Under the pieces are notes generated by a model. It was not told the DNA's origin. It was given only the letters and a program-made list of their open reading frames with translations, and did not search any database. The position numbers and the translations under genes are program-made. A stretch of DNA of 64,000 bases from contig CAZTZL010000004.1 of assembly GCA_964617625.1 (NCBI GenBank), positions 11,009 through 75,008 on the forward strand. The letters run 5' to 3'. The stretch's first letter is position 1. Each line of letters begins with the position of its first letter. This stretch comes from an uncultured bacterium (lineage in GTDB: Bacteria > Zhuqueibacterota > QNDG01 > DSAB01). This document shows positions 8,693 to 64,000 of this stretch, one piece after another.

Positions 8693-8784
8693 AAGCTAAT
8701 TATTTTAACAAAACTTTTTTATATAATCAAGCGCTTTTTAGTTAAATATTTTATCAGTTTTCATAACAAGGGATTGAAATTAAG

Positions 8785-8807
8785 AAAGCCCCCGATACGG
8801 GGGCTTT
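8785..8807 (-). terminator. Intrinsic terminator hairpin after the ferritin-like gene
   Basis: aaagcccccg-ata-cgggggcttt forms a 10 bp GC-rich stem, followed on the minus strand by a T-rich tract. It lies 53 bp after the stop at 8860. Confidence 0.55.
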
Positions 8808-8859
8808 CAACCAGCAGGAATAACAAATGATTTCTTTAATTTCCAATGGACCGCTTTAT

Positions 8860-9366
8860 TCAGGGACCGACATGAATCATATCATACTGAAAGTCATCCC
8901 GGTCATAATACATTTCATCTCTTTGGCACAACTCCAATTCTCCCTTTAAAAGAAAGTAATGCCCATGTTCCATGCTCGCCAGATATTGTAAGATTTCCTG
9001 GACACCGCGATCTTCGATCTCTTCAGAAAGGGTGTCATAAAACTCTTCTGACACTTTTTCCAATTCAACTGCCATTTCAAGCAGATCAGGAACCAATGTT
9101 TCCTCAGACAAAGCCAAATCCAGTCTCGGAACAAGGGATTTTTCTGCCGGAGATATTTCTTTCCCGTTAAACATTTTCTTATACATTGCTTCCAGCAATT
9201 TTTGATGTTTCTTTTCTTCATTAATTAAAAATTGAAGTTTGTCCTTTAATACAAAATTTTTCACCTGCTTTTTTAATTTCTTATAAGTCTCTTCTGCTTC
9301 AATCTCTGACTTATATGCAACAGATAAAGCTTTTTCGTTCGTCAAAGAAGAAACATCTACTGACAT
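8860..9366 (-). CDS. Ferritin-like / erythrin-type diiron four-helix-bundle protein (rubrerythrin-family, no rubredoxin domain)
   Basis: Two E...ExxH half-sites (EIEAEE...EEKKHQK, and ELEKVSEE...MEHGH). 168 aa and predicted helical. Confidence 0.55.
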   Translation of the reverse strand: MSVDVSSLTNEKALSVAYKSEIEAEETYKKLKKQVKNFVLKDKLQFLINEEKKHQKLLEAMYKKMFNGKEISPAEKSLVPRLDLALSEETLVPDLLEMAVELEKVSEEFYDTLSEEIEDRGVQEILQYLASMEHGHYFLLKGELELCQRDEMYYDRDDFQYDMIHVGP

Positions 9367-9685
9367 TTTTTTATCCTCCTATCTTAGTTTCTATCATTTT
9401 GTGAATTTCAATTTGTATCACAAAAACACAAAATCCAAATTGCACATAAATGTCGAATCATAAAATTCAAATTAAATGTTGTGATGATAGCTGTCAGTGT
9501 ATACAAATATTCTCTTTTCCTTAAATATCTATTCATAGTTAAGATAACGCATCAAATAGAATATCATCTAAACTACGCCAATGGATAGTTTTGATATTTG
9601 GCATTTGTGCTTTATTTGGATTTTGGTTTTTATTATATGAAATTTCAAAAAAACGTTACCTATTTCAATCTTTACAAAACTGTTA

Positions 9686-25645: not shown

Positions 25646-27958
25646 TCATCTTAATAAAATCATTTTACGGCTGTATGAACCAGGTCCGATTTCTAATCGA
25701 TAGATATAAATACCAGAGGAACAAATACGGCTGTTTGAATCCTGACCTGACCATTCCACCCTGTACTGCCCCGGAGCTTGCACTTCCTTTTCAATTTTTT
25801 GAACCACACGTCCCTGGATGTCATAGATTTGAATGACTGCTTTTCTGTTTAAACGTCCTGTTTTTTCAGGGACATTGAATCGAATAACCGTTGTTTGATT
25901 GAATGGATTGGGATAATTTTGCCACAGATCAAACGATTCCGGGATAAATTCACTCGCTTCTTCTTCTTCAACATCAGTTTTTAAAACCGCACGGTAGATA
26001 TCGAGTTTGCCGTATCCCCACTGATCATCCCAGTAATATTGCTCGCCGGCGTGCCCGGTATTCGCATCTCTTTTTGCGGATGAGATAATCCAGTTTTTAA
26101 CGATTGAAATCGATGTATCCGGAAAAGACTCAAAAAGAAGCGCCACTGCACCAGTCACATGAGGCGCAGCCATGCTCGTTCCATGCAATGCCCAGTGGAC
26201 GCTGTCCGTGGCAATATATTGATTACCAGGCCATGATGTCTGATCCGACAAAGAAGATAGAATGTATTCTCCCGGTGCGGTAATTTCCGGTTTACTGGGA
26301 GGATTCGATTGGGTGGAATTAGGACGTGTCGGACCCTGGCTGGAAAATGAAGAACGCTGTCCTGCAGTAAGCCCGCCGGGACCCCATGGATTTTGAGACA
26401 GACTCGGCCAATTGATGCGCGAGACATAGGATCCAACTGTAAGAACGCGATTCGCATTTCCGGGCTCTGCGATGAGTGTCGAATAATCCACGCCCTGTGT
26501 GATTCTGGCCGTAACGGATCTATCATACATCCATCCGTCAAAACGTCCCCACTTGCCTACAAAGATCAGCTTCCAGATACCTGTCTCGAAATTCTGGATC
26601 GCACCGCCGTTCTGGGTATCGGATAAATGGATATAAATTTCTTTATCACCATTGGAATGCTCGGTATCTTCATCATCGTTTTGCACATGAATCATGGGCA
26701 TTCCGGCCTGCGGCCAAAAAAGAATCTCCCCTGCATCGACCGTATCGAGACGCGTGTGACTTGGCGTTTCAACAATCAATTTCAAACCCAGTGCGGAAGT
26801 GTACCAGATATCGAAATAGAGATCGTTCCTTGTTTCCGATTCATTGGTTTCGACTTCGAATTCAATGACAACCGAATCCCATACCGTCGAATACATTTCT
26901 CCTTTAAAATGGATCGGATCATCCCCTTCGTTGCCGGCCGCCGTGACAATGGCCCGTCCATCTTCATTCAAGAAATTGGTTAAGCTTCTTTCGTACAAAC
27001 TCGTCCCGTCGTGAGACCCGTGATGCGTTCCTCCGACGCTCAGATTGATTGCCACCGGACGAGATGGATCAAATGCTTCCGCTTTTTGAAAAATATAGTT
27101 GATGCCGTCAACAATACGATCATTGTCATAAACACCATCCCCACCCTTAACGATAATCAGATCCGCTCTGGGAGCTACGCCGACATAAACCTCAGAAGGT
27201 TTGTCATTGCCTGCCCCCCTGCCGTTCCCCGCAGCAATTCCGGCAACGTGTGTGCCGTGTCCCGTCCTGTCCCTGCCCTGGACCAATCCTGCGGGCGTAC
27301 CGTCGATTTCGTTATTGATCTGTTCCTGCGTGTATTCAGTGCCGTATCCAAAAGATGTCGTTCCGGTGTCTGTATTATCAGTCTGGTCCCAAAGAAAGAG
27401 AATTCTCGAATCATTCGAGTTATCGATAAAATCGGGATGGGTCCAGTCGATCCCCGAATCATAAATCCCAATAATGACGCCTTCTCCCTGCCGGGGAACA
27501 CCCAAATAGCCGGCCCAAACAGAATCCGCGCCAATTTCGTGAATACTGACATCCAGAGCAGCCTTGCACCTTGAGACCGATTCGATCCGAATCACAGAAG
27601 GCAACGCCGCAACTGTCCACAATTGAACCGGTGTTAATGTTGCTGTGACCACATCTCCAATTTCAGAATGAGTCCGGACACCGGCTGATTTCAGTTCTGC
27701 AATATCGGTCGTCTGAATAAACACATCAATATAAATCCGGTTCCCCTCTTCTTTAAGATCCGGATTATAAAACTGTTCAGGATATTTTTCGGACAATGTG
27801 ACCAGTTCGCTTAAAACAGGATCAAGTTTTTGAAACAAATACCGCTCTTGGCCATATCCATCATTCAAACTGAAAATGAAAACAGCGAATAATAAAAACC
27901 GGTATTGTTTTTTTCTCACCTGCTTCATAATCCTCTCAATCGATTCTGCTCTGTTCAC
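25646..27958 (-). CDS. S8-family subtilisin-like serine peptidase with a T9SS C-terminal sorting domain
   Basis: Catalytic triad motifs D(YDSGID), HGTHVAG and GTSMAAPHV. The C-terminal LWQNYPNPFN...IYDIQGR...GIYIYR is the Por secretion tail. The likely true start is the Met at 27928 (MKQVRKK... signal peptide), which removes the apparent overlap with xerD. Confidence 0.85.
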   Translation of the reverse strand: MNRAESIERIMKQVRKKQYRFLLFAVFIFSLNDGYGQERYLFQKLDPVLSELVTLSEKYPEQFYNPDLKEEGNRIYIDVFIQTTDIAELKSAGVRTHSEIGDVVTATLTPVQLWTVAALPSVIRIESVSRCKAALDVSIHEIGADSVWAGYLGVPRQGEGVIIGIYDSGIDWTHPDFIDNSNDSRILFLWDQTDNTDTGTTSFGYGTEYTQEQINNEIDGTPAGLVQGRDRTGHGTHVAGIAAGNGRGAGNDKPSEVYVGVAPRADLIIVKGGDGVYDNDRIVDGINYIFQKAEAFDPSRPVAINLSVGGTHHGSHDGTSLYERSLTNFLNEDGRAIVTAAGNEGDDPIHFKGEMYSTVWDSVVIEFEVETNESETRNDLYFDIWYTSALGLKLIVETPSHTRLDTVDAGEILFWPQAGMPMIHVQNDDEDTEHSNGDKEIYIHLSDTQNGGAIQNFETGIWKLIFVGKWGRFDGWMYDRSVTARITQGVDYSTLIAEPGNANRVLTVGSYVSRINWPSLSQNPWGPGGLTAGQRSSFSSQGPTRPNSTQSNPPSKPEITAPGEYILSSLSDQTSWPGNQYIATDSVHWALHGTSMAAPHVTGAVALLFESFPDTSISIVKNWIISSAKRDANTGHAGEQYYWDDQWGYGKLDIYRAVLKTDVEEEEASEFIPESFDLWQNYPNPFNQTTVIRFNVPEKTGRLNRKAVIQIYDIQGRVVQKIEKEVQAPGQYRVEWSGQDSNSRICSSGIYIYRLEIGPGSYSRKMILLR

Positions 27959-28970
27959 GAGGATGAAATGTCTGTATCACTTCCTTGAGATATTCCCGGT
28001 CCAGATGGGTGTATATCTGAGTTGTCGAGATATCAGCATGGCCGAGCATTTCCTGGACAGAACGCAGATCGGCTCCTCCTTCCAAGAGATGTGTGGCAAA
28101 AGAATGCCGCAGCGTGTGCGGGCTGACCCGTTTTTCGATGCCTGCCTGTGCGACATAAAATTTCAGAATTTGCCACACGGCAGCCCTCGTTAACGGCCTG
28201 CCATGCATGCTGAGAAAAAGAATGTCATTTCGGCGTATCTCTTTCAGCAAATCAGGTCTCACTGAATCCTGATATTTCCGGATCCATTCCAATGCAATTG
28301 ACCCGATCGGCACCAGACGTTCCTTGGATCCTTTTCCAAAAACACGAATAAACCCTTCTTCTTCGATGATACTGGATCGGGTGATCCCGGTCAATTCGGA
28401 AACTCGTACTCCTGTTGCATATAATGTTTCCAGAATGGCTCTGTCGCGAATTCCCTTGGGCAGCTGAACATCCGGCTGAGAGAGCAGCAAATCCACTTCA
28501 GGAATTTCCAGAAATGTCGGAAGTTTTCTCCCGATTTTCGGTACTTCCAGATCATCAGTTGGATCGCAAGAGAGAATATTCTCATTCATCAAAAACCGGT
28601 GAAACATACGAATGGCTGTAATATTTCTGGCCATGCTCGAACTGGCCATTCCAAGATTTGAAAGAAGAATAATCAGACTTCTAATATGCTGAGGCGTAAT
28701 TCTCCCTATTTTCCGGACACCCTGTTCTTCAAGAAACTCCAGATACCTGTTGATATCGTTCCGGTATGCCAGACGCGTGTTGTTTGAAAGTCCCTTTTCG
28801 AGTACCAAATAATTGATAAATCGATCGAGCAGGGATTTAAACGCTGGATCGATCCTGGGAAACGAATGGATTCTTACTCCTCTCTCTTCCGATTGTGGTC
28901 TCCGGGCCGTGTCCGGGATAAACAATGAAATCATCGTCCAATATATACAATTTTTTTTGAATGGATTCAA
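27936..28970 (-). CDS. xerD: Tyrosine site-specific recombinase XerD/XerC
   Basis: RHSFATHLLEGGADLRSVQEMLGHADISTTQIYTHL includes the catalytic tyrosine, and the N-terminal core-binding domain is present (LDRFINYLVLEKGLSNNT). The 5' end is uncertain. XerD homology starts near residue 41, so the start is probably internal (Met at 28934); either choice overlaps the 3' end of the MBL gene. Confidence 0.8.
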   Translation of the reverse strand: MNPFKKNCIYWTMISLFIPDTARRPQSEERGVRIHSFPRIDPAFKSLLDRFINYLVLEKGLSNNTRLAYRNDINRYLEFLEEQGVRKIGRITPQHIRSLIILLSNLGMASSSMARNITAIRMFHRFLMNENILSCDPTDDLEVPKIGRKLPTFLEIPEVDLLLSQPDVQLPKGIRDRAILETLYATGVRVSELTGITRSSIIEEEGFIRVFGKGSKERLVPIGSIALEWIRKYQDSVRPDLLKEIRRNDILFLSMHGRPLTRAAVWQILKFYVAQAGIEKRVSPHTLRHSFATHLLEGGADLRSVQEMLGHADISTTQIYTHLDREYLKEVIQTFHPREQSRID

Positions 28971-53981: not shown

Positions 53982-55052
53982 TCAAAATTTCAATGGAATG
54001 GGTTTATTTAGAAGGATTGTCAGGGAAATGCGATGGGTATGTCCAAGATCAAAATGATTTAAAAATCCATAATCCACTTGAAAATATTTAAACCAAAAAC
54101 CTCCTCCAACTGTAAAGTTCCCCCTGTCCGTGCCAGCCCGTAAAAAAAGTCGGTCTTTGTAGGAGATTTCTCCTCCGGCGTGCAGATCGAAACCCAAAGC
54201 TCCCAGAGACATTTGGGCTACTTCGCCTCTCGATTCAAAATCCACATCAATTTCACAGACAGGAAGTACTTTGATAGAATGAAATTGAACCGGATAAACG
54301 GCTCCCAATCTCAAATGCGGCAGCAACAATTCCGTTCTCCCTGTATTCCATGCAATGAGAGTTGAAGTGCCGTCCGCAAGAACAGCTCCAATTTTCAGTT
54401 GATGAACCGGATTCCATAATACTCCGAAATCAAATCCGATTCCCCACGCACCCCATTGATCCATGCTCTTTCGAATCGTTTTAATACTTCCACCATATGA
54501 GAAAGAACGGCTCTGTCTTTTTCCAAAGGAAAACATGAAAACCATTTCACTGTCGTTGATATATTTTTCAACCTGTGGAAGATTTTCGGCTCCCAAAGGT
54601 TTCGAAGGATCGGTCAGCCGGGTCAACGGAATGTCATCCACGCCTAATCGGTATACTCCAAAACCCAAAGTCAAGCTGTCCTTTACAGAATATCCGAGTC
54701 CAAGAAAATCCCAATTGACAATGCCGCTGAATCGTTCTGCATGCATTCCGTGTATTTGAAAAGACTGCAGAAAAGCCAGTCCTGCAGGATTCCAGTAGAT
54801 TGCCGTAACATCTTCCGAAGCCGCAACATAGGCGCCTCCCATCGCTAGTGCCCGTGCACCGACACCCACTGCCAAAAACTCTCCCGCATATTTTGAAGTT
54901 GTTACCTCTCCATAAACGAGGGACAATTTGGAGATAAAGAAAAAGATGATTGCGTAAATTATTTTCAATTTCAATTGTTTTTCCTTTTTAACCTTTCCCA
55001 AGTCCCTAAAACATACATAAATAGCTACACAAAAGCAAGGTAAAATTTTCAA
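53982..55052 (-). CDS. Outer-membrane beta-barrel protein, PorV/PorQ-like (FadL-like) family; paralogue of 43079..44074
   Basis: GVGARALAMGGAYVAASEDVTAIYWNPAGLA N-terminal motif. Beta-strand periodicity ending in an aromatic C-terminus (...IPLKF). Confidence 0.4.
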   Translation of the reverse strand: MKILPCFCVAIYVCFRDLGKVKKEKQLKLKIIYAIIFFFISKLSLVYGEVTTSKYAGEFLAVGVGARALAMGGAYVAASEDVTAIYWNPAGLAFLQSFQIHGMHAERFSGIVNWDFLGLGYSVKDSLTLGFGVYRLGVDDIPLTRLTDPSKPLGAENLPQVEKYINDSEMVFMFSFGKRQSRSFSYGGSIKTIRKSMDQWGAWGIGFDFGVLWNPVHQLKIGAVLADGTSTLIAWNTGRTELLLPHLRLGAVYPVQFHSIKVLPVCEIDVDFESRGEVAQMSLGALGFDLHAGGEISYKDRLFLRAGTDRGNFTVGGGFWFKYFQVDYGFLNHFDLGHTHRISLTILLNKPIPLKF

Positions 55053-55095: not shown

Positions 55096-55124
55096 AACCC
55101 TATTGAAATGAATTCAATAGGGTT
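55096..55124 (-). terminator. Rho-independent terminator of the REC-PAS-HisKA gene
   Basis: aaccctattgaa-atgaa-ttcaatagggtt forms a perfect 12 bp stem, followed on the minus strand by TTTTTATATAT. It lies 31 bp after the stop at 55155. Confidence 0.6.
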
Positions 55125-55154: not shown

Positions 55155-56213
55155 TTATGTCGAACCGTCTATATCAAGCATCCTTGTTCCTTTTAAATAT
55201 TCTTTTGTGACGGGATGTGTAATATTGGCAAGTTTTTGAGTAATATCCCGAATGCGGAGTGCGTTTTTTATTATAGCCTTTAACCGTTTTCTGCAATCCT
55301 CATCTTCAATTTTCCCTTCATGAAGAAGATACTGGGCATTCCCTAAAATTGGAACCAGGGGATTGTTCACTTCATGATTGACTGCCACTGCTGTTTCGAC
55401 GACTGCGACCAAACGGTCCGAAGCATACGAGTCGTATTCAGAAAAATTCTTTCCTTCAATTTCTTTACTGATTCCAATGGCTCCGATCACCTTGCCACTG
55501 CCATCCTGCATTGTAGAAATGGAAAGATTTATGGGGATTCTTTTTCCTTTCTTATCAATGACAATGGTCTTATAATTTGGCAATTTTTTTCTTTTTCTAA
55601 GCAAAGCGCTAATATTTAATAATTCGGAAGGACCGTCAGCTAAAAACCGGCTGACCCGTTTTTCCACCAATTCCTCAAAACTGTATCCCAACATCTCTTC
55701 GCTGGCATGATTGCAATAGGTAATAATGCCTTTTCTGTCTGTGGTGATGATAGAATCAATTGAACTTTCGACAACCCTTTCCAGAAAATCTTTTGCTTCA
55801 TGAATGGTCGTCCAGAACTGAGTTTCCTCCATCTTGATTTGATGGGACACAAATACGTCTTCAACAAATTCAATCAGCTCTTTCACACTATAAGGTTTTC
55901 CCAAACAGGCACTAAAACCCAATCCATAATATTTAGAACGATTTAATTTCCCGTTATTGGTAAGCAAAATAAAAGGAATATGTTTGAAGGATTGATATTT
56001 AAAATCTGTCAAAAAGTGAGTATAAAATTCTTCTGCAGAAAAATCGGGTAAAGAGTAGTTAACAATGACCAGATTCGGATTCTCTTTTAATATTCCTTCA
56101 AGACCTTCTTTCCCGTTATCATAAAACAAACAACGATAACCATTATCGACAAGTACTCCATCAATTTTTTTCCTATATCTTTTGTCATTATCGATATAAA
56201 CTATTTTTTTCAT
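55155..56213 (-). CDS. Pseudo-receiver + PAS + HisKA-only signalling protein (no ATPase domain)
   Basis: REC-like fold in which the phospho-acceptor position reads N (LVIVNYSLPD) while the conserved K is kept (GKPYSVKEL). A PAS domain follows (IITTDRKGIITYCNHASEEMLGY), then an H-box NHEVNNPL. The protein ends about 60 aa later with no G1/G2 boxes. Confidence 0.6.
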   Translation of the reverse strand: MKKIVYIDNDKRYRKKIDGVLVDNGYRCLFYDNGKEGLEGILKENPNLVIVNYSLPDFSAEEFYTHFLTDFKYQSFKHIPFILLTNNGKLNRSKYYGLGFSACLGKPYSVKELIEFVEDVFVSHQIKMEETQFWTTIHEAKDFLERVVESSIDSIITTDRKGIITYCNHASEEMLGYSFEELVEKRVSRFLADGPSELLNISALLRKRKKLPNYKTIVIDKKGKRIPINLSISTMQDGSGKVIGAIGISKEIEGKNFSEYDSYASDRLVAVVETAVAVNHEVNNPLVPILGNAQYLLHEGKIEDEDCRKRLKAIIKNALRIRDITQKLANITHPVTKEYLKGTRMLDIDGST

Positions 56214-56289
56214 TTTTTTATCTGCATATGCTATATTTTATTAAAGTCCTTTTGTCGTGTACAGGAAACAAGTGTTATACAAAAGTAAA

Positions 56290-56661
56290 TTAATTTCCCA
56301 ACCGATCACTCACAAGTTGTTTCAAAATCAACAAATCCCATGGCTTTGAAAGGTAAAGCGTCCCATCCTTTTTATTTTCAGCAATACGTCCGAATTTAAG
56401 ATCAAGATATCCGGAAGTTAATACTCTCACCGAGTGTGGATTCTTTTCACGAATTTGATTGAGCAGATCCGAGCCTGAAGCATCTGGTAATTTTAAATCG
56501 GACAAGACAAAATCAATCCCATGATGTTCTACAATTTCCAATGCATCCGATGCCCGTTTCGCTGTATGCAACTGATATCCGTCATCCGAAAAAAGATCCA
56601 CCAGAATATCGAGTATTTCTTCTTCGTCATCAACAAAAAGAAGGCTTTTATCGCCGTTCAT
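56290..56661 (-). CDS. Single-domain CheY-like response regulator
   Basis: Canonical REC residues: DD (LLFVDDEEE), D (VLSDLKLPD), T (VLTSGY), K (SKPW). The start is set at ATG 56659-56661 (MNGDKS), which is preceded by a GGAGG and lies downstream of a sigma-54 promoter. The longer ORF-track start at 56733 would contain that promoter. Confidence 0.8.
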   Translation of the reverse strand: MNGDKSLLFVDDEEEILDILVDLFSDDGYQLHTAKRASDALEIVEHHGIDFVLSDLKLPDASGSDLLNQIREKNPHSVRVLTSGYLDLKFGRIAENKKDGTLYLSKPWDLLILKQLVSDRLGN

Positions 56662-56725
56662 AGAACCTCCAAATTCCCTTACATCAAAAACACTCAAATC
56701 ATTACTATATCTGTACTTACAAACA

Positions 56726-56741
56726 GGCAACATTCATGCCA
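56726..56741 (-). promoter_or_regulatory. Sigma-54 (-24/-12) promoter candidate upstream of the CheY-like regulator gene
   Basis: Minus-strand sequence TGGCAT-G-AATG-TTGCC matches TGGCAC-N5-TTGCW with correct GG-N10-GC spacing, about 65 nt upstream of the ATG at 56661. Confidence 0.5.
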
Positions 56742-56862
56742 TGTGGAATGAACATTGTTTAGTATTTAATTAATAGAATGTTATGAATAGTATTAAGGTA
56801 TGCGATAAACAGAGGATAGAAGGCAAGCTTTTCCTTTGTCAGGATCAATTTACCCATTGTTA

Positions 56863-58236
56863 TTAAACAACAATTCCTTCTTTTCTATATTCATTTAGTT
56901 TATTTCGAAGTGTACGAACACTGATTCCCAACAGGTCTGCAGTTTTGGTTCGATTATCTTCATTTTCGCGGAGTGTTCTTAGAATCAGGGTCTTTTCTAT
57001 TTCTCTCAGGGATTTCGGTTTCGATCCATCGTAAAGAGGTTCTTCTTTTGAAATATGATCACTCAGAGAAAAATGGTTCACATCCAGCATGGTCACATCA
57101 GGGCCTGACATGACAATCGCACGTTCGATACAATTCTCAATCTCCCGAACATTTCCCGGCCATTCTTTTTGCATAAGCATTTTCATTGCTTTTTCCGATA
57201 CGCCTTTTATCTTCTTTCCATTTTCGCTGTTATATCCATTAATAAAATATTGTATAAGAAGCGGTATATCCTCTCTTCGTTCAGATATCGGAGGCAAATG
57301 AATAGGAACGACATTAAAGCGATAATAAAGATCTTCCCGGAAACGCCCCTCTTCAACTTCTTTCTTAAGGTCACGGTTGGTCGTAGCGATAATGCGCACA
57401 TCCACAGGGATTGGCTTTCCCCCACCTACCCTTTCAATTTCCCTTTCCTGAAGAACCCGCAACAATTTTGCCTGAAGCCCTAAAGTAATCTCACTGACTT
57501 CATCCAAAAGCAGAGTACTTCCGTGAGCCATTTCAAACCGGCCCTTTGTGGTTTTATAAGCTCCCGTAAAAGCACCTTTTTCATGACCGAACAATTCACT
57601 TTCAACAAGGCCTTCCGGCAACGCTGCACAATTGGTTGTAATAAACGGCATTTGACGCCGATCGCTGTTATAGTGAATTGCCCTTGCTACAAGTTCTTTG
57701 CCCGTACCGCTTGGGCCTTGTATCAGTACTGTGGCCTTGCTTCGAGCGACCATCTGAATCGATTCGAAAACACGGTTCATGGGATCACTCTTTCCAACGA
57801 TGTTTTCAAAACTGAATTTCTTATCGAGCTCAGATCTCAAATAGCGATTTTCGTCGACCAAATTTTGATATTCAAAATATTTATCGACAACCAGTTCCAT
57901 TTCTTCCAAACTAAAGGGTTTTGTAATATAATCAAACGCACCCTGTTTCATCGCTTTAACCGCACTCTTGATCGAACCATAAGCAGTAATCATAATAATG
58001 CCAATACCAGGATATTTCGTTTTTACTCGAGAGAGAATTTTCATTCCACTGATATCAGGTAATCTGATATCGGTAATCAGAAGATCGTAGGGATTTTCCT
58101 CAAGCCTGGCAAGTGTTTCTTTTCCATTGGCTGTCACATCAACAGAAAAACCTTTTCTCTGAAAAGTTTCGTTCAATAGTTCGCGGATCATTTCCTCATC
58201 GTCAAGAACCAGAATACGTTTTTGTTCATCATTCAT
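56863..58236 (-). CDS. Sigma-54-dependent transcriptional activator, NtrC family (REC + AAA+ + Fis-type HTH)
   Basis: REC domain (ILVLDDEEM...LLITDIRLPD), Walker A GPSGTGKE, ESELFGHEKGAFTGA (GAFTGA), an arginine finger, and a C-terminal HTH. Confidence 0.9.
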   Translation of the reverse strand: MNDEQKRILVLDDEEMIRELLNETFQRKGFSVDVTANGKETLARLEENPYDLLITDIRLPDISGMKILSRVKTKYPGIGIIMITAYGSIKSAVKAMKQGAFDYITKPFSLEEMELVVDKYFEYQNLVDENRYLRSELDKKFSFENIVGKSDPMNRVFESIQMVARSKATVLIQGPSGTGKELVARAIHYNSDRRQMPFITTNCAALPEGLVESELFGHEKGAFTGAYKTTKGRFEMAHGSTLLLDEVSEITLGLQAKLLRVLQEREIERVGGGKPIPVDVRIIATTNRDLKKEVEEGRFREDLYYRFNVVPIHLPPISERREDIPLLIQYFINGYNSENGKKIKGVSEKAMKMLMQKEWPGNVREIENCIERAIVMSGPDVTMLDVNHFSLSDHISKEEPLYDGSKPKSLREIEKTLILRTLRENEDNRTKTADLLGISVRTLRNKLNEYRKEGIVV

Positions 58237-58239
58237 GTA

Positions 58240-58944
58240 TCAATTTCCTTCATCTAATTGAATCAACAAGGTATGGCGATCTTTTGAATTCGTCTCAAGT
58301 GAAATTCGGGCATTGTGCAAATCCGCAATCTTGTATACGACAGCAAGAGAAAGTCGTGCTTCAATGGGTTCACATTCCTCAATAAAATGAACAATGTTTT
58401 CCAATAGATCAGAGGGAATCATTCCATCATGAAAGTGAATTTCTATATCAATCTTTGAATTTTCAGGTGGGTTGAGTTTAACGGACTCAATTTGTCCGCC
58501 AACCAATTGAGTAAAACGAAATGCATGATAAAAAAGCTCACGCATTAAATACGGATCCCCTGATAATTCCATTTTTTCTTCCGGGAAGTCAGTATGAATG
58601 ACGTCTACTTGTTCTTTATCTTTATCCTCTTTTGTAAAATTATAGCAGATTTCCTTGATCAAAGACTTTATGGCGATTTTTTCAAAACTGGGTTCTGCTT
58701 TTTGCACCAATGTCATTAAATGAATGACAAATTCATTCAACCGATGGACGCCGTCGATAATTCTTTGCAGAAGTTTCTTTCTCGGATCATTTCGATCGAG
58801 ATCTCTTTCCAGAAGAGAAGCAAACCCGCCTATACCACCCAGGTTATTTTTTATTTTGTGTACAACATCGGATAAAAATTTGTCATCCCTGCTGTGTCCG
58901 ACCTGGAAATGGATAAAATTCTGGTCCTTCTCATTCAAATCCAA
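58240..58944 (-). CDS. Cytoplasmic histidine-kinase-like protein with a degenerate ATP-lid (possible pseudokinase or phosphatase), translationally coupled to the sigma-54 activator
   Basis: H-box VVHKIKNNLGGIGGFASLLERDL. The C-terminal domain aligns to HATPase_c but the G2 box is replaced (ARLSLAVVYKIADLHNARISL in place of GLGLAIV..HGG). No TM or sensor domain. TTG start. 3 bp gap to the downstream NtrC-like gene. Confidence 0.65.
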   Translation of the reverse strand: MDLNEKDQNFIHFQVGHSRDDKFLSDVVHKIKNNLGGIGGFASLLERDLDRNDPRKKLLQRIIDGVHRLNEFVIHLMTLVQKAEPSFEKIAIKSLIKEICYNFTKEDKDKEQVDVIHTDFPEEKMELSGDPYLMRELFYHAFRFTQLVGGQIESVKLNPPENSKIDIEIHFHDGMIPSDLLENIVHFIEECEPIEARLSLAVVYKIADLHNARISLETNSKDRHTLLIQLDEGN

Positions 58945-59004
58945 ATTAGTCAGTTAAACCTCCTCGGGCTTTCTGGGTTTTTGTGAAACCACCAACTATT
59001 GTTT

Positions 59005-59020
59005 TGCTTAAACCATGCCA
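59005..59020 (-). promoter_or_regulatory. Weaker sigma-54-like promoter candidate upstream of the HK-like / NtrC-like operon
   Basis: Minus-strand TGGCAT-G-GTTT-AAGCA has correct GG-N10-GC spacing but an imperfect -12 element, about 65 nt upstream of the TTG start at 58944. Confidence 0.25.
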
Positions 59021-59227
59021 AAAATATGTCATTTTCGTCTTTTTCAAGTAAAAAATGAAAAATAAATCTGTATATAAAATTCCCCTGTTTCCAAATCATT
59101 TTCTTATATCTTGATTATATAGTATAATATATTGAATACTTTATAATTAATTACATATCGATAATGGTAATTTTACAGGATATAATTTTACAATCATTTT
59201 CAATCTCAATTTCTCCATACATAAAAA

Positions 59228-59251
59228 AACCAGTATCATTAAATACTGGTT
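59228..59251 (-). terminator. Rho-independent terminator of hybrid histidine kinase 59327..61774
   Basis: aaccagtat-cattaa-atactggtt forms a 9 bp stem followed on the minus strand by TTTTTTT. It lies 76 bp after the stop. Confidence 0.6.
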
Positions 59252-59326
59252 TACAAAAAGAAAGGAACTTTACAAATTGGAACTACCAAATGATCCTCCA
59301 GATACTTCGGATAGTTGGAAAATCAA

Positions 59327-61774
59327 TCAGCCATTTAATACTGTTCGCACCTGTTGCAGTAAAGACCTCACTTGATAAGGTTTATGAATAATTCCGGAAA
59401 TATGGGATGTGATTGATTTCCCATAGGCTTCTTTTTCTCCCAAACCAGCTGCGGCAATAATTTTAATTCTTGGATTCATTTTTTTCAGCCAGACTAAAAT
59501 TTTGGAAATTTCCATTCCGCTCATAATAAGATCCAAAATAACCAGATCCACTCGATTCTTGTATTTTTTATAAATCGCAATCGCTTCAGGCCCGTTCTCC
59601 GCACAAATCACTTTATAACCGTATCGCGTAAGCATCTTTCGGGCTGTTTCTTTTAATGCCTTTTCATTATCGACCAGCAGAATGGTTTCCTTTCCCAATA
59701 TTGGTTTCGCATTGATTGCAGATTTTTTTTGCTGGGAACGGTTTTGCTTTTCACAAACAGGCAAGTGAATCTTGAATACGGTTCCCTTATCCTTTTCGCT
59801 GAACACAGAAATAAAACCACCATGTTTTTCAATGATTTCCTGAACGATCGATAATCCCAAACCTCTTCCGGTATCATTTGGCTTGGTAGTAAAATACGGT
59901 TCAAAAATTTGCTCTTTAATCTCACTGCTCATTCCAATGCCGGAATCACTGATCGTCAATTGTACATATTGGCCTGGTTTCGCCCCTGAATGTAACTGCA
60001 CATTACTCTCATCCAGCTGGATATTACTCGTTCGAAAAACAATTTTCCCTTCATTCGATATCGCATCACGGGCGTTTAAAGCAACTTCAAGAATCGCATG
60101 CTGTATTTGTCCCGTATCACCCATAATAGAGGCCAATTCAGAATTTAATTCGGCACGAATCGTAATCGTCTTACTTAATGTTCGTGATAAAATGCCGGCA
60201 ACCTCTTTTACCAGTTGATTCATATCCAAACAAATAACGCTTTCTCCTCCTGCCTGAGCATACGCTAAAAGCCTTGAAGTCAATTCCGTAGCTTTCTCCG
60301 AAGTCCTCATAATTTGGATGATATCATTATAATAGGGGCTGTTCTTGGGGACGTCTTCATGTAACAGCGAACTATATCCCAAAATCGAAGCCAGCATATT
60401 ATTGAACTCGTGTACAATCCCACCAGCCAAAATACCAAGAGATTCCATCTTTCTTGCCTGAATCAATTGTTCATGAAGCCTCTCCCGTTCCTCTTTACTG
60501 ATCCAACACCAAATAGTCATTTTATCATCATCAAAACTGATTGGATTAATTTCTATCCATCGCCGTCTTCCATCTTTGATTACTGCAATCACTTCATATT
60601 TTCGATTTTGATCCCCGTTTGACACATCCGTGTTATCCTTATTAATCATTTCATGAAAATCCGAGGCAATAAAATCTGTAACAGGCCTTCCATTGATAAG
60701 GTCACTGGAAAGCTCCAGAAAATTTTCAACCCATTTATTGACGTATTGGACAATCCCGTCTTTAATAAATAAAACCCCAAAAATGGAGATTTTCAATAAC
60801 AGATTCAAAGGATCCGTATTTGTGATGGAAACAGGCGCCGGGTTTTCTTTTTTCATGAAAACAAATGGCAAAATAGATTCTAAGAATTCAATATTATCCA
60901 GACTCCACTGATTCGAAAGAACATGCGTAATCACCAAACAGCCGTGTTTAAATCGATTTGTTTTTAACGTAACAATTCCGAGCGATTCATAATCCGTCAA
61001 AGATACCAAATAATCCTTTTCATCCTCACCGGATGATTCGAACATTAAATTTGAGAGTGATTCAATTAATACACTGCCGGAGGCGGTACCAGGACACAGT
61101 GTTTGTCGAGAACATTTATTGGCGATTTGCAGCCACCGCTCTGCCGGCCATTTTCTGAAATCATCCGGGTCATTTTCGGGGATAGTGACTAATTTGTTCC
61201 ATTTACCGAGGGTAAATTTTGTTCCGCTTTTATCTTCGAAAAATAATCCAATCCCGTCGGTTCTCATACTCTTCTGTATTTCAATTAAAACATTTTCCAA
61301 TAATTTTTCAAATATATAATTTCCGTTTAGCAATTCTAAAAAACGGATGGACAATTTTTGTTTGTTTTGTAATTGAACAACATCAGAAATATTTTTTATA
61401 TAGAGTCTAACCTCGGTTATCTTGTCGGATTCGTCTGCAACTGACAAACCATTTATCATGACAGGAATACAATATCCGTCCTGCTTTTTTAAATATGCTC
61501 TTGCATCCTTTATATAACCTTTGCTTTTACATTTTTTAACGGCTTTCTCAATTTCGTCTTGATATGGATCATCAACCAGGTCCAGGAATTTTTTTCCGGT
61601 TATTTCCTTCTTTTCATAGTCCAAAATATCCAGAACAGTCGTATTACATGAGACAATAGCTCCCTCATTATTAATAAGAAAATATAAAATATCCGCTTTT
61701 GAGTACAATTCCTCGTATATCTTTTCAGGGACACTCAAGTTGTAACTTCTTGTTTTATCAACAGTTTTATTCAT
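59327..61774 (-). CDS. Cytoplasmic hybrid sensor histidine kinase (multiple PAS/GAF domains, HisKA, HATPase_c, C-terminal REC)
   Basis: H-box GGIVHEFNNMLASILGY, N/G boxes (LNARDAI, DSGIGM, GRGLGLSIV), and a C-terminal REC (LVILDLIMSGM, HKPY). No TM segments. Confidence 0.85.
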   Translation of the reverse strand: MNKTVDKTRSYNLSVPEKIYEELYSKADILYFLINNEGAIVSCNTTVLDILDYEKKEITGKKFLDLVDDPYQDEIEKAVKKCKSKGYIKDARAYLKKQDGYCIPVMINGLSVADESDKITEVRLYIKNISDVVQLQNKQKLSIRFLELLNGNYIFEKLLENVLIEIQKSMRTDGIGLFFEDKSGTKFTLGKWNKLVTIPENDPDDFRKWPAERWLQIANKCSRQTLCPGTASGSVLIESLSNLMFESSGEDEKDYLVSLTDYESLGIVTLKTNRFKHGCLVITHVLSNQWSLDNIEFLESILPFVFMKKENPAPVSITNTDPLNLLLKISIFGVLFIKDGIVQYVNKWVENFLELSSDLINGRPVTDFIASDFHEMINKDNTDVSNGDQNRKYEVIAVIKDGRRRWIEINPISFDDDKMTIWCWISKEERERLHEQLIQARKMESLGILAGGIVHEFNNMLASILGYSSLLHEDVPKNSPYYNDIIQIMRTSEKATELTSRLLAYAQAGGESVICLDMNQLVKEVAGILSRTLSKTITIRAELNSELASIMGDTGQIQHAILEVALNARDAISNEGKIVFRTSNIQLDESNVQLHSGAKPGQYVQLTISDSGIGMSSEIKEQIFEPYFTTKPNDTGRGLGLSIVQEIIEKHGGFISVFSEKDKGTVFKIHLPVCEKQNRSQQKKSAINAKPILGKETILLVDNEKALKETARKMLTRYGYKVICAENGPEAIAIYKKYKNRVDLVILDLIMSGMEISKILVWLKKMNPRIKIIAAAGLGEKEAYGKSITSHISGIIHKPYQVRSLLQQVRTVLNG

Positions 61775-61877
61775 GAGTTCTATAAAAAGAAATTATTTTT
61801 CTCCGAATCGATGCAAGCCACTTTTTAAACCTGTATATTATGATCTTTTTCAAAAGAAATATTTTCAGATAATAATT

Positions 61878-61893
61878 TGCAAACCTTGTTCCA
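61878..61893 (-). promoter_or_regulatory. Sigma-54 (-24/-12) promoter candidate upstream of hybrid histidine kinase 59327..61774
   Basis: Minus-strand TGGAAC-AAGGT-TTGCA matches TGGCAC-N5-TTGCA with one mismatch. It lies about 105 nt upstream of the start at 61774. Confidence 0.45.
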
Positions 61894-61917
61894 AATGATG
61901 ATTTTTTTAAAAAATAT

Positions 61918-64000
61918 CTATACTATTTTTCGGACAGCTTGTAAGAGGACTTCTGTCTGGAAGGGCTTTTGTATAAATACAACATCTCCGAATTGTTCCA
62001 AATCATGATGATTGTAAGGACCATATCCGGAAGTAAATATTACCTTGATATTTGGATTCGTTTCACGAAGCTTCTTAAACGCTTCCTTACCACCCATCTC
62101 CGGCATAATCAGATCTAAAACCACAAGGCTGATATTTTCCCTGTTTTTATTATAAATCTCAAGCGCTTCTTTGCCATTGCTTGCCAATAAAACTTCATAT
62201 CCTCCTTTTTCCAGCATTCGCTTGCCAACCTGTCGAATCACCTGCTCGTCATCAACAAGGAGGACTATGTTTTTCTCAGAAGATTCTGAAACAGACACTG
62301 GATGAATTTCCTCATTGACCTCCTGAAACCTGGGCAACAATATGGACACCTTTGTCCCTTTGCCAAGTTCACTATCCACAAGAATTGCGCCTTCGTGATT
62401 TTTAATAATACCATATACCATTGCCAATCCTAAACCGGTTCCTTCTCCGGCAGGCTTTGTCGTAAAAAAAGGTTCAAAAATTCTATTTTTGGTTTTTTCG
62501 TCCATTCCGACACCCGTATCGGATATCGCAATACGAATATAATCTCCCGGCTGAACACCCAGCTGAGTTTGGGAAAATGTTTCATCCAAAATAACATTGG
62601 CAGTTCCAATTGTCAGCTTTCCTCCGCCCGACATGGCTTCAACTGAGTTGAGACAAATATTCATAATGGCCTGATATATTTGCTTTGAATCGCCTTTCAC
62701 CCACCAGAGATTTTTACCCAGCGATGTTTCGATAATAATCGATTTATCGATTGTACGATATAATGCAGTTATAATTTCTTCTATATTTTGATTTAAATCA
62801 ATAGATCGCACATGATATTTCCCGCCGCGAGCGAAAGCCAGAAGACGGTTCGTCAAATCGGCGGCCCTCTTAGCCGTCTCGGCAATGGTATGAATGTCAT
62901 TGTAATAAATATGATTGCTGGGCATATCACTCAATAACAATGAGGCATATCCCAAAATTCCGCCTAAAAGATTGTTAAAATCGTGCGCTATACCGCCGGC
63001 CAATGTGCCTATGGATTCCATTTTCTGACTTTCAAAAAGCTGTATTTCCAGTTTCTTTCTTTTTGTAATATCCACAACATTGCCGAGAACCGCCACCTCT
63101 CCTCCCATTTCTACCTGGCACGATCTGAGTTCCCCATAAAGCTTTTCATCCCCCTTTTTAATAAACCGAACTTCATAGTGATCGACAACCTCCTCGCCTT
63201 TCTCTCTTTGATTTTCACGGCTGACTACCATGCTTCGATCCTCGGGAGCAATAAATTCAAAAAAGTCTTTCTCGATAAGTTCATCTCTGTTATAACCAAG
63301 AAAATCGGCAAATTTACTATTGACAAATTGAATTTTACCTTGCCTAATAATGAATACACCGATCAGAGAGGATTCAACCAGCAAACGGTATTTTTCTTTC
63401 GATTCCCTTAAACTCTCCTCCAGAGCTTTCCTCACTTCAACATCACGAATAAAACTCTGAAATACCTCTTTTCCCTGAAACCAGACTTTTCTGCTGCTTA
63501 ATTCTGCTTCAAATACTGTATTGTCTTTTCTTTTTAGTATTGTCTCCAATGGTTTTGTCTTTTGACCATGAAATACAACTTTTAAATAATTCTCTTGTTC
63601 GGAAAAAGCTTTGTCAATTGTAATATCTTTCCAGGTCAGTTGTAATAATTCTTTTCGTTCATATCCCAATAATTGACAGGCAACACGATTAATTTCGATT
63701 AATTGCCCCGTGCTGTCATGTATGATAATACCATCATTCGTTCCTTCGAACAACACATGATATTGAAATTCTTTCTCAAGCAGGTTCTTGGTCCCTTCTT
63801 CGATACGCTCTTCAACATGTTTTACCCAGTTATTCAGTTCCGTTCTTTTCTTTTTCAGTTCGCGAAAAAGCCTTGTGTTTTGAATTGAAAGAGCCAAAAC
63901 AGACGATACGAAGGATATAAAATCCAACACCCTAGTTTCTTCTCTTAACGAAGAATAGTCGATCAGTAAGATAGCATCGATATAATTGGTGTGAATGTTT
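61918..64000 (-). CDS. Hybrid sensor histidine kinase (GAF end, 2x PAS, HisKA, HATPase_c, C-terminal REC); N-terminus extends beyond the window end
   Basis: H-box GGIAHDFNNLLGGILGY, DTGVGM / GTGLGLAMV, and REC (VLLVDDEQ...VVLDLIMPEMGG...QKPF). The minus-strand frame remains open upstream of the annotated GTG at 63930, through to base 64000 (...HTNYIDAILLIDYSSLREETRVLDFISF looks like the end of a GAF domain). Confidence 0.85.
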   Translation of the reverse strand, partial: NIHTNYIDAILLIDYSSLREETRVLDFISFVSSVLALSIQNTRLFRELKKKRTELNNWVKHVEERIEEGTKNLLEKEFQYHVLFEGTNDGIIIHDSTGQLIEINRVACQLLGYERKELLQLTWKDITIDKAFSEQENYLKVVFHGQKTKPLETILKRKDNTVFEAELSSRKVWFQGKEVFQSFIRDVEVRKALEESLRESKEKYRLLVESSLIGVFIIRQGKIQFVNSKFADFLGYNRDELIEKDFFEFIAPEDRSMVVSRENQREKGEEVVDHYEVRFIKKGDEKLYGELRSCQVEMGGEVAVLGNVVDITKRKKLEIQLFESQKMESIGTLAGGIAHDFNNLLGGILGYASLLLSDMPSNHIYYNDIHTIAETAKRAADLTNRLLAFARGGKYHVRSIDLNQNIEEIITALYRTIDKSIIIETSLGKNLWWVKGDSKQIYQAIMNICLNSVEAMSGGGKLTIGTANVILDETFSQTQLGVQPGDYIRIAISDTGVGMDEKTKNRIFEPFFTTKPAGEGTGLGLAMVYGIIKNHEGAILVDSELGKGTKVSILLPRFQEVNEEIHPVSVSESSEKNIVLLVDDEQVIRQVGKRMLEKGGYEVLLASNGKEALEIYNKNRENISLVVLDLIMPEMGGKEAFKKLRETNPNIKVIFTSGYGPYNHHDLEQFGDVVFIQKPFQTEVLLQAVRKIV

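Follow-up and report, generated by a model that had tools for sequence, protein, structure and literature searches.

Degenerate histidine kinases that have come to work as phosphotransferases are known from several bacteria, the described cases being Spo0B, ChpT and PhyT (PMC5898713; PMC3433190). The receivers that partner the DHp-type transferase ChpT, CckA-Rec and CpdR, carry an FxSGY motif, also called 'FATGUY' (PMC9981736). A second point of reference is the general flagellar scheme of the FlgS/FlgR, FleS/FleR and FlrB/FlrC type (PMC7064773). The gene cluster analysed here touches both; it makes up a single conserved signalling module, cytoplasmic in nature, in an uncultured lineage of the FCB group.

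The cluster was recognised within a window of 64 kb, which is the whole stretch of DNA that was analysed. An earlier note on this DNA had described a signalling island of six genes, numbered (i) to (vi); all six lie on the minus strand and, apart from the GAF domains discussed below, have the domains described beforehand. The genes turned out to be co-conserved as a unit, their order recurring in 12 species-level genomes and also in a number of metagenome contigs. The full order (hybrid kinase, hybrid kinase, short kinase-like protein, NtrC, REC, REC-PAS-DHp) was found in the window and at L002, L003, L005, L008, L009, L016 and L017, and variant or truncated copies at L006, L007, L010-L013, L023 and L061. 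The genes flanking the cluster vary from locus to locus. Because the gene order is kept across so many genomes, the grouping goes far beyond chance. Orthologues of (iii) are 66-95% identical to the protein of the window and those of (iv) 28-87%. In the window, 3 nt separate the two genes; at other loci they overlap or adjoin each other.

The most unusual member is gene (iv) (58240..58944, minus strand), a kinase-derived pseudokinase of 234 aa in which a DHp hairpin carrying His29 (VHKIKNNL) is joined to a CA-fold domain. Pfam detected HisKA alone in it (E = 4e-8) and gave no match to HATPase_c. Alignment with ZraS and ThkA showed that the G2 box reads EARLSL and that the Glu at H+1 has become Lys. 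The degenerate G2 box and the position just upstream of (iii) had been noticed before; alignment with canonical relatives showed that the N-box Asn has been replaced, that the G1 box is lost as well and that about 14 residues of the ATP lid are deleted. Unlike these relatives, the protein also lacks a PAS sensor. The idea that (iv) is an active HisKA-type kinase was thus rejected: the His is in place in the DHp, but the N-box Asn, G1, ATP lid and G2 are all missing. Profile searches, by which the absence of an ATPase domain could have been contradicted, detected no intact one in either (i) or (iv). What (iv) does have is a DHp with a conserved His together with a CA fold devoid of ATP-binding motifs. 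Its AlphaFold model (pLDDT 78.7, pTM 0.76) retains the DHp hairpin and a CA-type alpha/beta domain, and the best PDB matches of the model were ZraS, other histidine kinases, RetS and DivL.

This architecture is shared by about 50 clusters of proteins that form a discrete family, all of 207-257 aa. An exhaustive profile search returned about 52 top representatives in this size range and then switched abruptly to PAS kinases of 400-440 aa. The G1/G2 motifs were absent from the top 52 representatives, save for one chance-looking match to the G1 regular expression. In the short forms, H+1 is Lys in 44/60 sequences and G1/G2 are essentially absent, whereas in the long forms H+1 is Glu in 52/62, with G1 present in 56/62 and G2 in 52/62. 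His29 is invariant in 23 of 23 (iv) sequences, and H29, K30, K32 and N33, like the motif LGGIGGFAxLLERD, show little or no variation. Mean column identity reaches 81% in DHp helix 1, compared with 44% in the CA-like part, and even the degenerate motifs are conserved, EARLSLA and HKIKN among them. Because the His and the DHp are invariant across the roughly 50 clusters, the degeneracy of (iv) is a selected state and not decay.

The nearest canonical relatives of the (iv)-(iii) pair are adjacent PAS-kinase/NtrC pairs located before flgB operons driven by sigma-54; they occur in KSB1, Latescibacterota, Zixibacteria, Ignavibacteriales and allied groups. Of 44 related loci, 23 have the long-form pair directly upstream of a sigma-54-dependent flgB-flgC-fliE-fliF-fliG operon. 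The flagellar enhancer-binding proteins of these pairs are 55-59% identical to (iii), with a near-identical HTH, and the flgB promoters of those with a (iii)-like HTH bear repeats similar to the one described below. The wider regulon of (iii) may be flagellar. The nearest relatives of (i) are also found within flagellar gene clusters. The flagellar origin of (iv)-(iii) and of (i) had been overlooked in the earlier note. No flagellar genes were detected in the window or within 10 kb of any cluster locus, so that (iv)-(iii) lacks the genomic setting of a flagellar FlgS/FlgR pair. Short and long forms of (iv) were found together in no genome. A hybrid kinase directly precedes the short form in 14 of the 14 loci that extend upstream (at about 500 bp in L061), compared with 0 of 44 loci for the canonical long form. 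This co-occurrence is one evolutionary event in one clade and does not represent independent replicates.

Upstream of the pseudokinase lie two hybrid histidine kinases. Gene (vi) (61918..64000, minus strand) has its N-terminus cut by the end of the window, no stop being found ahead of it, and its orthologues measure 817-851 aa; the visible part contains an N-terminal region without an assigned domain, two PAS domains, HisKA, HATPase_c and a REC domain with the CckA-type 'FTSGY' motif. Gene (v) (59327..61774, minus strand; 815 aa) comprises a PAS domain, an unassigned region spanning residues 130-320, a second PAS domain, HisKA, HATPase_c and REC. In both, the H, N, G1, F and G2 boxes are intact and the C-terminal receiver keeps its Asp and Lys; in the receiver of (v), the second acidic residue and the T/S position differ among orthologues. 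The earlier description of the pair as large soluble hybrids with multiple PAS domains and C-terminal receivers stands, and neither protein has a transmembrane segment, but the GAF domains that it included were not detected by Pfam, either in residues 130-320 of (v) or in the N-terminal 230 aa of one full-length (vi) orthologue. The top NCBIfam matches of (vi) were CckA-like and PRK13557, each under its cutoff; with 284 and 376 bits against a cutoff of 1000, (v) and (vi) were rejected as CckA orthologues. Their DHp is of the AHDFNNLL type, a subfamily different from that of the ancestral partner of (iii) and also from those of (iv) and (i). An intrinsic-terminator-like hairpin with an 11-bp stem and a T run (59227..59252, minus strand) follows (v) and divides the (vi)-(v) unit from (iv)-(iii). 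Similar hairpins come after (v) in L005-L009, and the two pairs form distinct transcription units at many loci.

Gene (iii) (56863..58236, minus strand; 457 aa) is, judged by its sequence, an NtrC-family sigma-54 enhancer-binding protein, as the earlier note had it. Pfam identified Response_reg (E = 6e-31), Sigma54_activat (E = 1.6e-71, covering the full profile 1-168), AAA_lid and the Fis-type HTH_8 (E = 1.6e-11), and the translation shows GAFTGA, GPSGTGKE and LLLDEV, corresponding to the GAFTGA loop and Walker A/B. The receiver residues D12, D13, D56, T84 and K106 are kept in all orthologues. No NCBIfam equivalog cutoff was reached by (iii), AtoC scoring 510 against a cutoff of 714. A sigma-54-type -24/-12 promoter, TGGCATGGTTTAAGCA (59005..59020, minus strand), is predicted about 60 nt upstream of the start codon of (iv), and the motif TGGCATGRTTTNRGCA is kept at the corresponding position in L003 and L005-L011.

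Downstream of the activator, gene (ii) (56290..56661, minus strand) encodes a single-domain receiver of 123 aa whose start corresponds to Met25 of a longer ORF. It was correctly taken for a stand-alone receiver: its phospho-site residues DD/D/T/K are all intact, and it bears an 'LTSGY' (FATGUY-like) motif and 'KPW'. Gene (i) (55155..56213, minus strand) encodes a REC-PAS-DHp protein of 352 aa (Pfam Response_reg, PAS and HisKA) with no Pfam match to HATPase_c. It ends about 70 aa past its His, and a CA domain would not fit in because a terminator follows and the next gene is only 100 bp away; that terminator-like hairpin, with a 12-bp stem (55096..55124, minus strand), closes the (ii)-(i) unit. 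Alignment to RR468 placed Asn52 at the phospho-Asp position, as had been read before, and Asn9 at the second position of the acidic pocket. The pseudo-receiver is not a design feature of the system: of 111 family members, 92 have D at this site, 8 have N, another 8 have E and the remaining 3 have S. The change from Asp to Asn is lineage-specific and not a family trait, 83% of the family keeping Asp. His280 is invariant in 111 of 111 members, H+1 is Ala in 90 of them and the CA domain is missing from all 111 or more.

The branched phosphorelay converging on the activator that the earlier note had suggested is supported in part. The transcription of (ii)-(i) speaks against these two proteins being simple inputs to it. 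A conserved sigma-54-type promoter, TGGCATGAATGTTGCC (56726..56741, minus strand), lies about 65 nt ahead of the true start of (ii), and 93 bp upstream of this promoter there is an enhancer (UAS)-like inverted repeat, GGAAA-AGC-TTGCC (56822..56834, minus strand). A repeat of this kind recurs between -91 and -104 at all distinct cluster loci with the (ii)-(i) promoter; its background rate is 0.021 per 200 nt. Because they stand behind a conserved promoter with an enhancer-like repeat, (ii) and (i) are probably products of the pathway that act back on it.

The reading that we favour, with a probability of about 0.5, is that the hybrids act through the His of (iv) on the activator (iii), with (ii)-(i) providing feedback. 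The analysis shows the domain and motif states, how the cluster is conserved, its promoters and repeat, and where the parts come from; we infer every phosphotransfer step in this scheme, that (iii) binds the repeat, and which sign the feedback has. The soluble PAS hybrids (vi) and (v), which are catalytically complete, would phosphorylate themselves and hand the phosphoryl group on to the receivers at their own C-termini. Gene (iv) descends from the PAS-kinase partner in a flagellar pair of the FlgS/FlgR (FleS/FleR) type and has lost its sensor and ATP-binding motifs. Having lost all of these motifs, it should be unable to autophosphorylate; it keeps the invariant His, its DHp docking helix has hardly changed, and it is therefore proposed to act as a dimeric histidine phosphotransferase. 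Phosphate would then move from the receiver of (vi) or (v) to His29 of (iv) and on to Asp56 of the translationally coupled (iii). Activated (iii) would bind GGMAA-N3-TTKCC and switch on the sigma-54 promoter of (ii)-(i), an activator-induced branch that would take up or drain phosphoryl groups. It might also drive the promoter of its own (iv)-(iii) operon; no GGMAA-N3-TTKCC was found upstream of that promoter, so autoregulation is unsupported. Both hybrids end at receivers, and no HPt domain (PF01627) was found in any of the six proteins (Pfam, E <= 0.01). The cluster thus lacks the HPt of a LuxU/LuxO-type phosphorelay, which makes a phosphotransfer role for (iv) the most economical reading. 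The genomic position of (iv) fits that of an intermediary, with the hybrids upstream and NtrC 3 nt downstream, although the cases share a single origin. Two hybrid inputs would not be obligatory, because L010 and L061 have a single one. The variable acidic pocket and T/S position in the receiver of (v) argue against this reading, as do the separate transcription units of (vi)-(v) and (iv)-(iii).

The sequence of (iv) is equally compatible with a phosphatase role, because the Asn at H+4, part of the HisKA phosphatase motif, is invariant, as is the entire DHp docking surface. Accordingly, (iv) might be a dedicated phosphatase or 'brake' that resets (iii)~P, having lost the kinase activity of a bifunctional HisKA protein and kept its phosphatase face, a possibility that we regard as rather unlikely. 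The hybrid DHp would then phosphorylate (iii), and perhaps (ii), directly, and the hybrid receivers would be internal sinks or regulators. That the (iv)-(iii) promoter is independent of the hybrids and that some loci have only one hybrid would suit such an arrangement. The HisKA phosphatase motif is commonly given as E/DxxT/N, whereas in (iv) the acidic H+1 has been swapped for a conserved Lys. Further, the His is kept invariant in (iv), although many kinases can dispense with it for phosphatase activity. Direct cognate transfer would require a new specificity, given the different DHp subfamily of the hybrids, and the strict linkage of the short form to a hybrid would be left unaccounted for. 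PhyT, formerly PhyP, offers a precedent in favour, because it was at first read as a phosphatase (PMC5898713).

We consider it improbable that (iv), (i) or both are phosphorylation-independent scaffolds like DivL, RocA or the CA-frameshifted ChrS, acting allosterically through a receiver or an intact kinase. The presence of DivL and RetS among the structural matches of (iv) points in this direction, as do the missing CA domain and the frequent Ala at H+1 in the family of (i). A ChrS variant lacking the CA domain works through heterodimers with HrrS (PMC9491836), but such heterodimers are unlikely here, where (iv) and (i) belong to other DHp subfamilies than (v) and (vi) do. A scaffold that is not phosphorylated would be free to lose its His, and the His is invariant in both families (23/23 and 111/111). 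DivL has indeed lost its phosphorylatable His. Finally, the 'broken' look of several components might suggest that signalling genes, including decaying pseudogenes, have come together here by chance. The conservation data already refute this, the order persisting despite different flanks, with intact reading frames, conserved degenerate motifs and conserved regulatory DNA.

Compared with known systems, (iv) resembles Spo0B of Bacillus, ChpT of Caulobacter and PhyT of Sphingomonas in having a DHp hairpin with a His and a CA fold past ATP binding. These proteins link an intermediary receiver to a terminal response regulator, a position to which (iv) is likened by gene arrangement alone. CckA, which acts upstream of ChpT, shares the FxSGY receiver motif with (vi) (PMC9981736). 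A PDB sequence search (E <= 1) with (iv) gave ThkA, ZraS, GacS, KinB and QseC and no homology to Spo0B or ChpT; the absence of a detectable sequence relationship points to an origin independent of Spo0B, ChpT and PhyT, and the analogy is a functional one only. In contrast to them, (iv) derives from a FlgS/FleS-like PAS kinase and has Lys at H+1, and the terminal regulator would be an NtrC-type sigma-54 activator instead of Spo0A, CtrA or PhyR. In the Vibrio LuxN/LuxQ/CqsS-LuxU-LuxO and RscS/HahK/SypF-SypG relays, several hybrid sensor kinases feed, by way of a phosphotransfer step, into one sigma-54 enhancer-binding protein. Those relays use an HPt four-helix bundle (LuxU and the HPt of SypF), whereas the present cluster has none and its kinases are cytoplasmic. 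DivL, RetS and RocA exemplify kinase-fold signalling that proceeds without autophosphorylation, and the first two match (iv) structurally; DivL, however, has no His, and (iv) keeps its own invariantly. The nearest relatives of (iv)-(iii) remain adjacent PAS-kinase/NtrC pairs, as in FlgS/FlgR, FleS/FleR and FlrB/FlrC, and relative to these (iv) has shed its PAS domain and ATP site, and the hybrids and (ii)-(i) have been added.

Six minus-strand genes, (i) to (vi), occupy the final 9 kb of the window, and the domain calls that an earlier note had made for them were borne out by Pfam and NCBIfam scans together with alignments to solved structures. Gene (i) (55155-56213, minus strand) encodes a receiver (REC), a PAS domain and a HisKA domain with no HATPase_c; alignment to RR468 places Asn52 at the phospho-Asp position, so that both peculiarities noticed earlier, the Asn and the missing ATPase domain, are real. 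Gene (ii) (56290-56661) encodes a single receiver, whose true start was set at Met25 (56661): the ATG further upstream is overlapped by a promoter, and public annotation calls the gene at 123 aa. Gene (iii) (56863-58236, minus strand) encodes an NtrC-type activator that is complete (GAFTGA, Walker A/B, HTH_8), and gene (iv) (58240-58944, minus strand) lies 3 nt before it, with HisKA as its sole Pfam match. Genes (v) (59327-61774) and (vi) (from 61918) encode PAS-HisKA-HATPase_c-REC hybrid kinases in which the H, N, G1, F and G2 boxes are all intact; (vi) has no stop up to base 64000, where the window cuts it, and its orthologues are 817-851 aa long. These two had been described as large soluble hybrids with multiple PAS/GAF domains and C-terminal receivers. 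The PAS domains, the receivers and the lack of any hydrophobic segment in (v) or (vi) held up; the GAF domains did not, since Pfam finds none in the unassigned parts of (v) or of a full-length (vi) orthologue. Pfam-blank stretches of about 190-230 aa in both kinases are putative sensor regions (window 60815-61387, minus strand; 4498-5190 in L005, one of the loci with relatives of the cluster genes in other genomes or metagenome contigs, numbered L002, L003 and so on). HPt domains are absent from all cluster proteins. Exact-protein look-up gave no record for (v), and returned (iii) and (iv) only on contigs of 2-4.5 kb.

Conservation of the gene order, a point raised in the earlier note, was examined in loci gathered by looking up gene contexts and by scanning species-representative genomes, and analysed by a custom ORF/domain script. 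The common order (hybrid kinase, hybrid kinase, short kinase-like protein, NtrC-type activator, REC, REC-PAS-DHp, where DHp is the His-bearing helical domain) recurs among loci with differing flanks. It is complete in the window, L002, L003, L005, L008, L009, L016 and L017, while L006, L012, L013 and L023 end at contig edges; as variants, there is one hybrid kinase in L010 and in L061, (ii) is missing from L011, and in L007 a different gene follows the NtrC-type one. The cluster-bearing MAGs (n=12) include CAZIAH01, JAFGDT01, CAZYVD01, CAZKMO01, JAWODZ01 and DSAB01. PorV-like, YicC, gmk and coaBC genes flank the cluster in the window, L002 and L061, and DUF4097 and LPG synthase genes do so instead in L003. 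Identity to the window proteins is 28-87% for (iv), 38-83% for (v), 66-95% for (iii) and 42-90% for (i). The cluster is not a chance grouping.

Other genes around the cluster were also recorded. Three diverged loci (L002 4064-4819, L003 2375-3220, L061 3175-3963) carry a PCMT-type (protein-L-isoaspartate) methyltransferase gene shortly before the hybrid kinases, and a PorV2/PorQ-like outer-membrane protein gene (window 53982-55052, minus strand) directly follows (i), as it follows the cluster in L002 and L061. Together with a subtilase bearing a type IX secretion sorting tail (Por_Secre_tail; 25646-27958, minus strand) and with relatives labelled KSB1, this last gene points to an organism of the FCB group. 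Among housekeeping genes the window also has one for a tyrosine recombinase (Xer/phage-integrase family; 27936-28970, minus strand). Rfam and tRNA scans of the window returned nothing.

For (iv), a search returned 43 homologues, all of 207-279 aa and annotated as HisKA at most. An alignment of 23 sequences shows little or no variation at H29, K30, K32, N33 and the stretch LGGIGGFAxLLERD, and EARLSLA is conserved where the G2 box used to be, which confirms the degenerate kinase-like protein suspected from the sequence; mean column identity is 81% in DHp helix 1 versus 44% in the part resembling the ATP-binding (CA) domain. The comparison set was provided by farther genome-scan matches, which are 370-450-aa PAS-HisKA-HATPase_c kinases always adjoining an NtrC-type gene (the long form). 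Compared with these, the PAS domain, the N-box Asn and G1 are gone from the short family, its ATP lid is deleted, HEIRNPL has become HKIKNxL and GTGLGLA has become EARLSLA. In an exhaustive profile search over 1.84 billion representatives, the top matches (about 52) are all 207-257 aa long and align from their N-termini, after which there is a sharp switch to 400-440-aa proteins aligned from about residue 200. The residue after the His (H+1) is Lys in 44/60 short forms, where G1 and G2 are essentially never present; the long forms have Glu in 52/62, G1 in 56 and G2 in 52. The AlphaFold model of (iv) (pLDDT 78.7, pTM 0.76) keeps the DHp hairpin and a CA-type alpha/beta domain, with ZraS, other kinases, RetS and DivL as best PDB matches. 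Because the His and the docking helix are conserved and the short forms are a discrete family without G1 and G2, (iv) is judged to be a stable, selected pseudokinase that retains both phospho-acceptor His and docking helix. Three long relatives (P0234, P0224 and P0215; 360-430 aa) have a non-acidic H+1 and lack a G1 and/or G2 match; they may be intermediates in which the PAS domain is kept and the CA domain is decaying.

The long forms place the ancestry of the pair among flagellar two-component systems. The kinase/activator pair is followed by flgB-flgC-fliE-fliF-fliG in 23/44 long-form loci (the flgB-bearing ones coming from KSB1, Latescibacterota, Zixibacteria, Ignavibacteriales, Glassbacteria, Gemmatimonadales and Calditrichota), and several of these have a sigma-54 promoter before flgB of the same type as the window's. 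L020, which belongs with the closest canonical relatives, has a gene for FapA (flagellar assembly protein A; 7833-9449) directly upstream of the PAS kinase. The long-form activators share 55-59% identity with (iii), and their recognition region (NRTKTAxxLGISVRTLRNKLNEY) is nearly the same. No genome in the scan of species representatives yielded both forms, which fits an origin of the short form by replacement rather than duplication, although the genomes compared include incomplete MAGs. Distant relatives of (i) (35-44% identity), also of about 355 aa and without a CA domain, sit in flagellar clusters directly before sigma-54-driven flgF-flgG-flgA-flgH-flgI, and one of these clusters encodes a REC-HD protein whose receiver shares 40% identity with that of (ii). 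Neither the window nor the 10 kb around each cluster locus revealed a flagellar gene. In Gemmatimonadales/Glassbacteria loci (L024 6699-7442, L028 12230-12979, L058 7764-8498) the flagellar activator is immediately followed by a conserved ORF of about 245 aa, whose NEMQFQDITTQQI may recall the CheZ active-site region.

The 111 full-length proteins of the (i) family all lack a CA domain and all keep the His, and H+1 is Ala in 90; the DHp and the C-terminal tail are most conserved (85% mean column identity). The receiver site is Asp in 92, Asn in 8, Glu in 8 and Ser in 3. Since Asp is kept in 92/111, the Asn in the window is a lineage-specific loss, and the idea that a pseudo-receiver in (i) belongs to the design of the relay is not upheld. 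The model of (i), folded as a monomer (pTM 0.47), is of low confidence in the DHp, and it was used solely for domain order and absence of the CA domain. A complete REC-PAS-HisKA-HATPase_c kinase of 510 aa (11472-13004, minus strand) has the domain order of (i) plus CA; derivation of (i) as a shortened copy of it was rejected (17% identity, E = 0.001). Intact receivers occur in (ii), (iii) and (vi), and that of (v) keeps Asp and Lys while other positions vary. The FTSGY of (vi) and LTSGY of (ii) correspond to the 'FATGUY' motif reported for the receivers CckA-Rec, CpdR, MrrA and SdrG, which exchange phosphate with DHp-type partners (PMC9981736).

Transcription signals suggest a link between the activator and the downstream genes. 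A sigma-54-type promoter, TGGCATGAATGTTGCC, is predicted upstream of (ii) (56726-56741), and the inverted repeat GG[AC]AA-N3-TT[GT]CC lies further upstream (56822-56834). In every cluster locus with (ii) or (i) the promoter motif is kept and the repeat stands 91-104 bp before it, against a background rate of 0.021 per 200 nt; flgB promoters have comparable repeats before them in L030, L024 and L028. This predicted arrangement is the classical layout of a target of a sigma-54 enhancer-binding protein (EBP), and therefore (ii) and (i) are probably controlled by (iii). A second promoter, TGGCATGGTTTAAGCA, is predicted upstream of (iv) (59005-59020); its motif TGGCATGRTTTNRGCA, with correctly spaced -24/-12 GG and GC, is kept in all nine distinct loci with a gap before (iv), and in loci without the gap (iv) abuts (v). 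A search upstream of this promoter for the GGMAA-N3-TTKCC repeat found none, which leaves autoregulation of (iv)-(iii) by (iii) only a guess. Further promoter or repeat copies in the window are chance-level matches only. Terminator-like hairpins follow (v) and (i). Another inverted repeat, TTTTCAAARTGAAA, absent from the window, lies exactly 4 nt past the (v) stop codon in six loci (L006 644-657, L007 5161-5174, L008 9650-9663, L009 7499-7512, L010 3844-3857, L011 9763-9776), 183-251 bp upstream of the (iv) sigma-54 promoter. The combination of TGGCAYRNATRTTGCY with GGMAA-N3-TTKCC about 100 bp upstream offers a regulon marker directly testable in uncultured lineages.

Genes (iv) and (i) encode the only nearby His carriers, and the hybrids end at their own receivers. 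In the most economical model, with a probability of about one half, a hybrid kinase would pass phosphate to its own receiver, from there to His29 of (iv) and on to Asp56 of (iii), which, once activated, would drive sigma-54 transcription of (ii)-(i) and thereby feedback. A route through (iv) is favoured because (iv) has kept the docking helix that the ancestral partner kinase of (iii) had, because translation of (iv) and (iii) is coupled, and because the cluster has no HPt and the hybrids end at receivers. The single evolutionary origin of the linkage between hybrids and short form is a weakness of this model. The H+4 Asn kept in (iv) is another, and fits a protein that acts as a phosphatase only, which we hold to be unlikely; a phosphate-free scaffold is more doubtful still. 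Chance grouping or gene decay can be dismissed, given an order conserved with different flanks and a stable, selected (iv). Of the branched phosphorelay originally proposed, the co-conserved cluster and the selected pseudokinase with its His stand, with a relay through (iv) as the most economical reading, while the Asn pseudo-receiver drops out of the design and (ii)/(i) look rather like targets of (iii).

To our knowledge, kinase-derived phosphotransferases are known from few model systems only, namely Spo0B, ChpT and PhyT. If the relay is true, (iv) would represent a fourth independent origin and the first such protein known to feed an NtrC-type EBP, and a further independent family would show that existing regulators repeatedly come under new sensors when the cognate kinase is made into a relay. 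The family can be traced clearly to its ancestor, the flagellar PAS kinase, shows candidate intermediates and is held in a fixed genomic partnership with the hybrid kinases and the NtrC-type protein, and it forms a natural series for asking which changes (loss of lid, N, G1 and G2; H+1 Glu to Lys) yield a pure transferase. Tentatively, and at somewhat less than even odds, an FlgS/FleS checkpoint kinase has become a new, independent phosphotransferase class (HKIKN, no PAS or ATP site) in one uncultured FCB-group lineage, which places an FlgR-like activator under two cytoplasmic PAS hybrid kinases, with the CA-less REC-PAS-DHp protein and the FATGUY receiver as an induced feedback branch.

Hybrid kinases also converge on a sigma-54 activator in LuxU-LuxO and SypF-SypG, where HPt domains serve as the link, whereas the window cluster has none. 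Spo0B, ChpT and PhyT are precedents of kinases turned transferases (PMC5898713, PMC3433190), and it is to these that (iv), here proposed from sequence as a kinase-derived phosphotransferase, is likened. The system could well be a multi-step phosphorelay with such a transferase, a variant of what is known, on which our opinion is evenly divided; what is notable about it is the clear descent from a flagellar two-component pair, the sigma-54 output and the conserved promoter-plus-enhancer feedback module.
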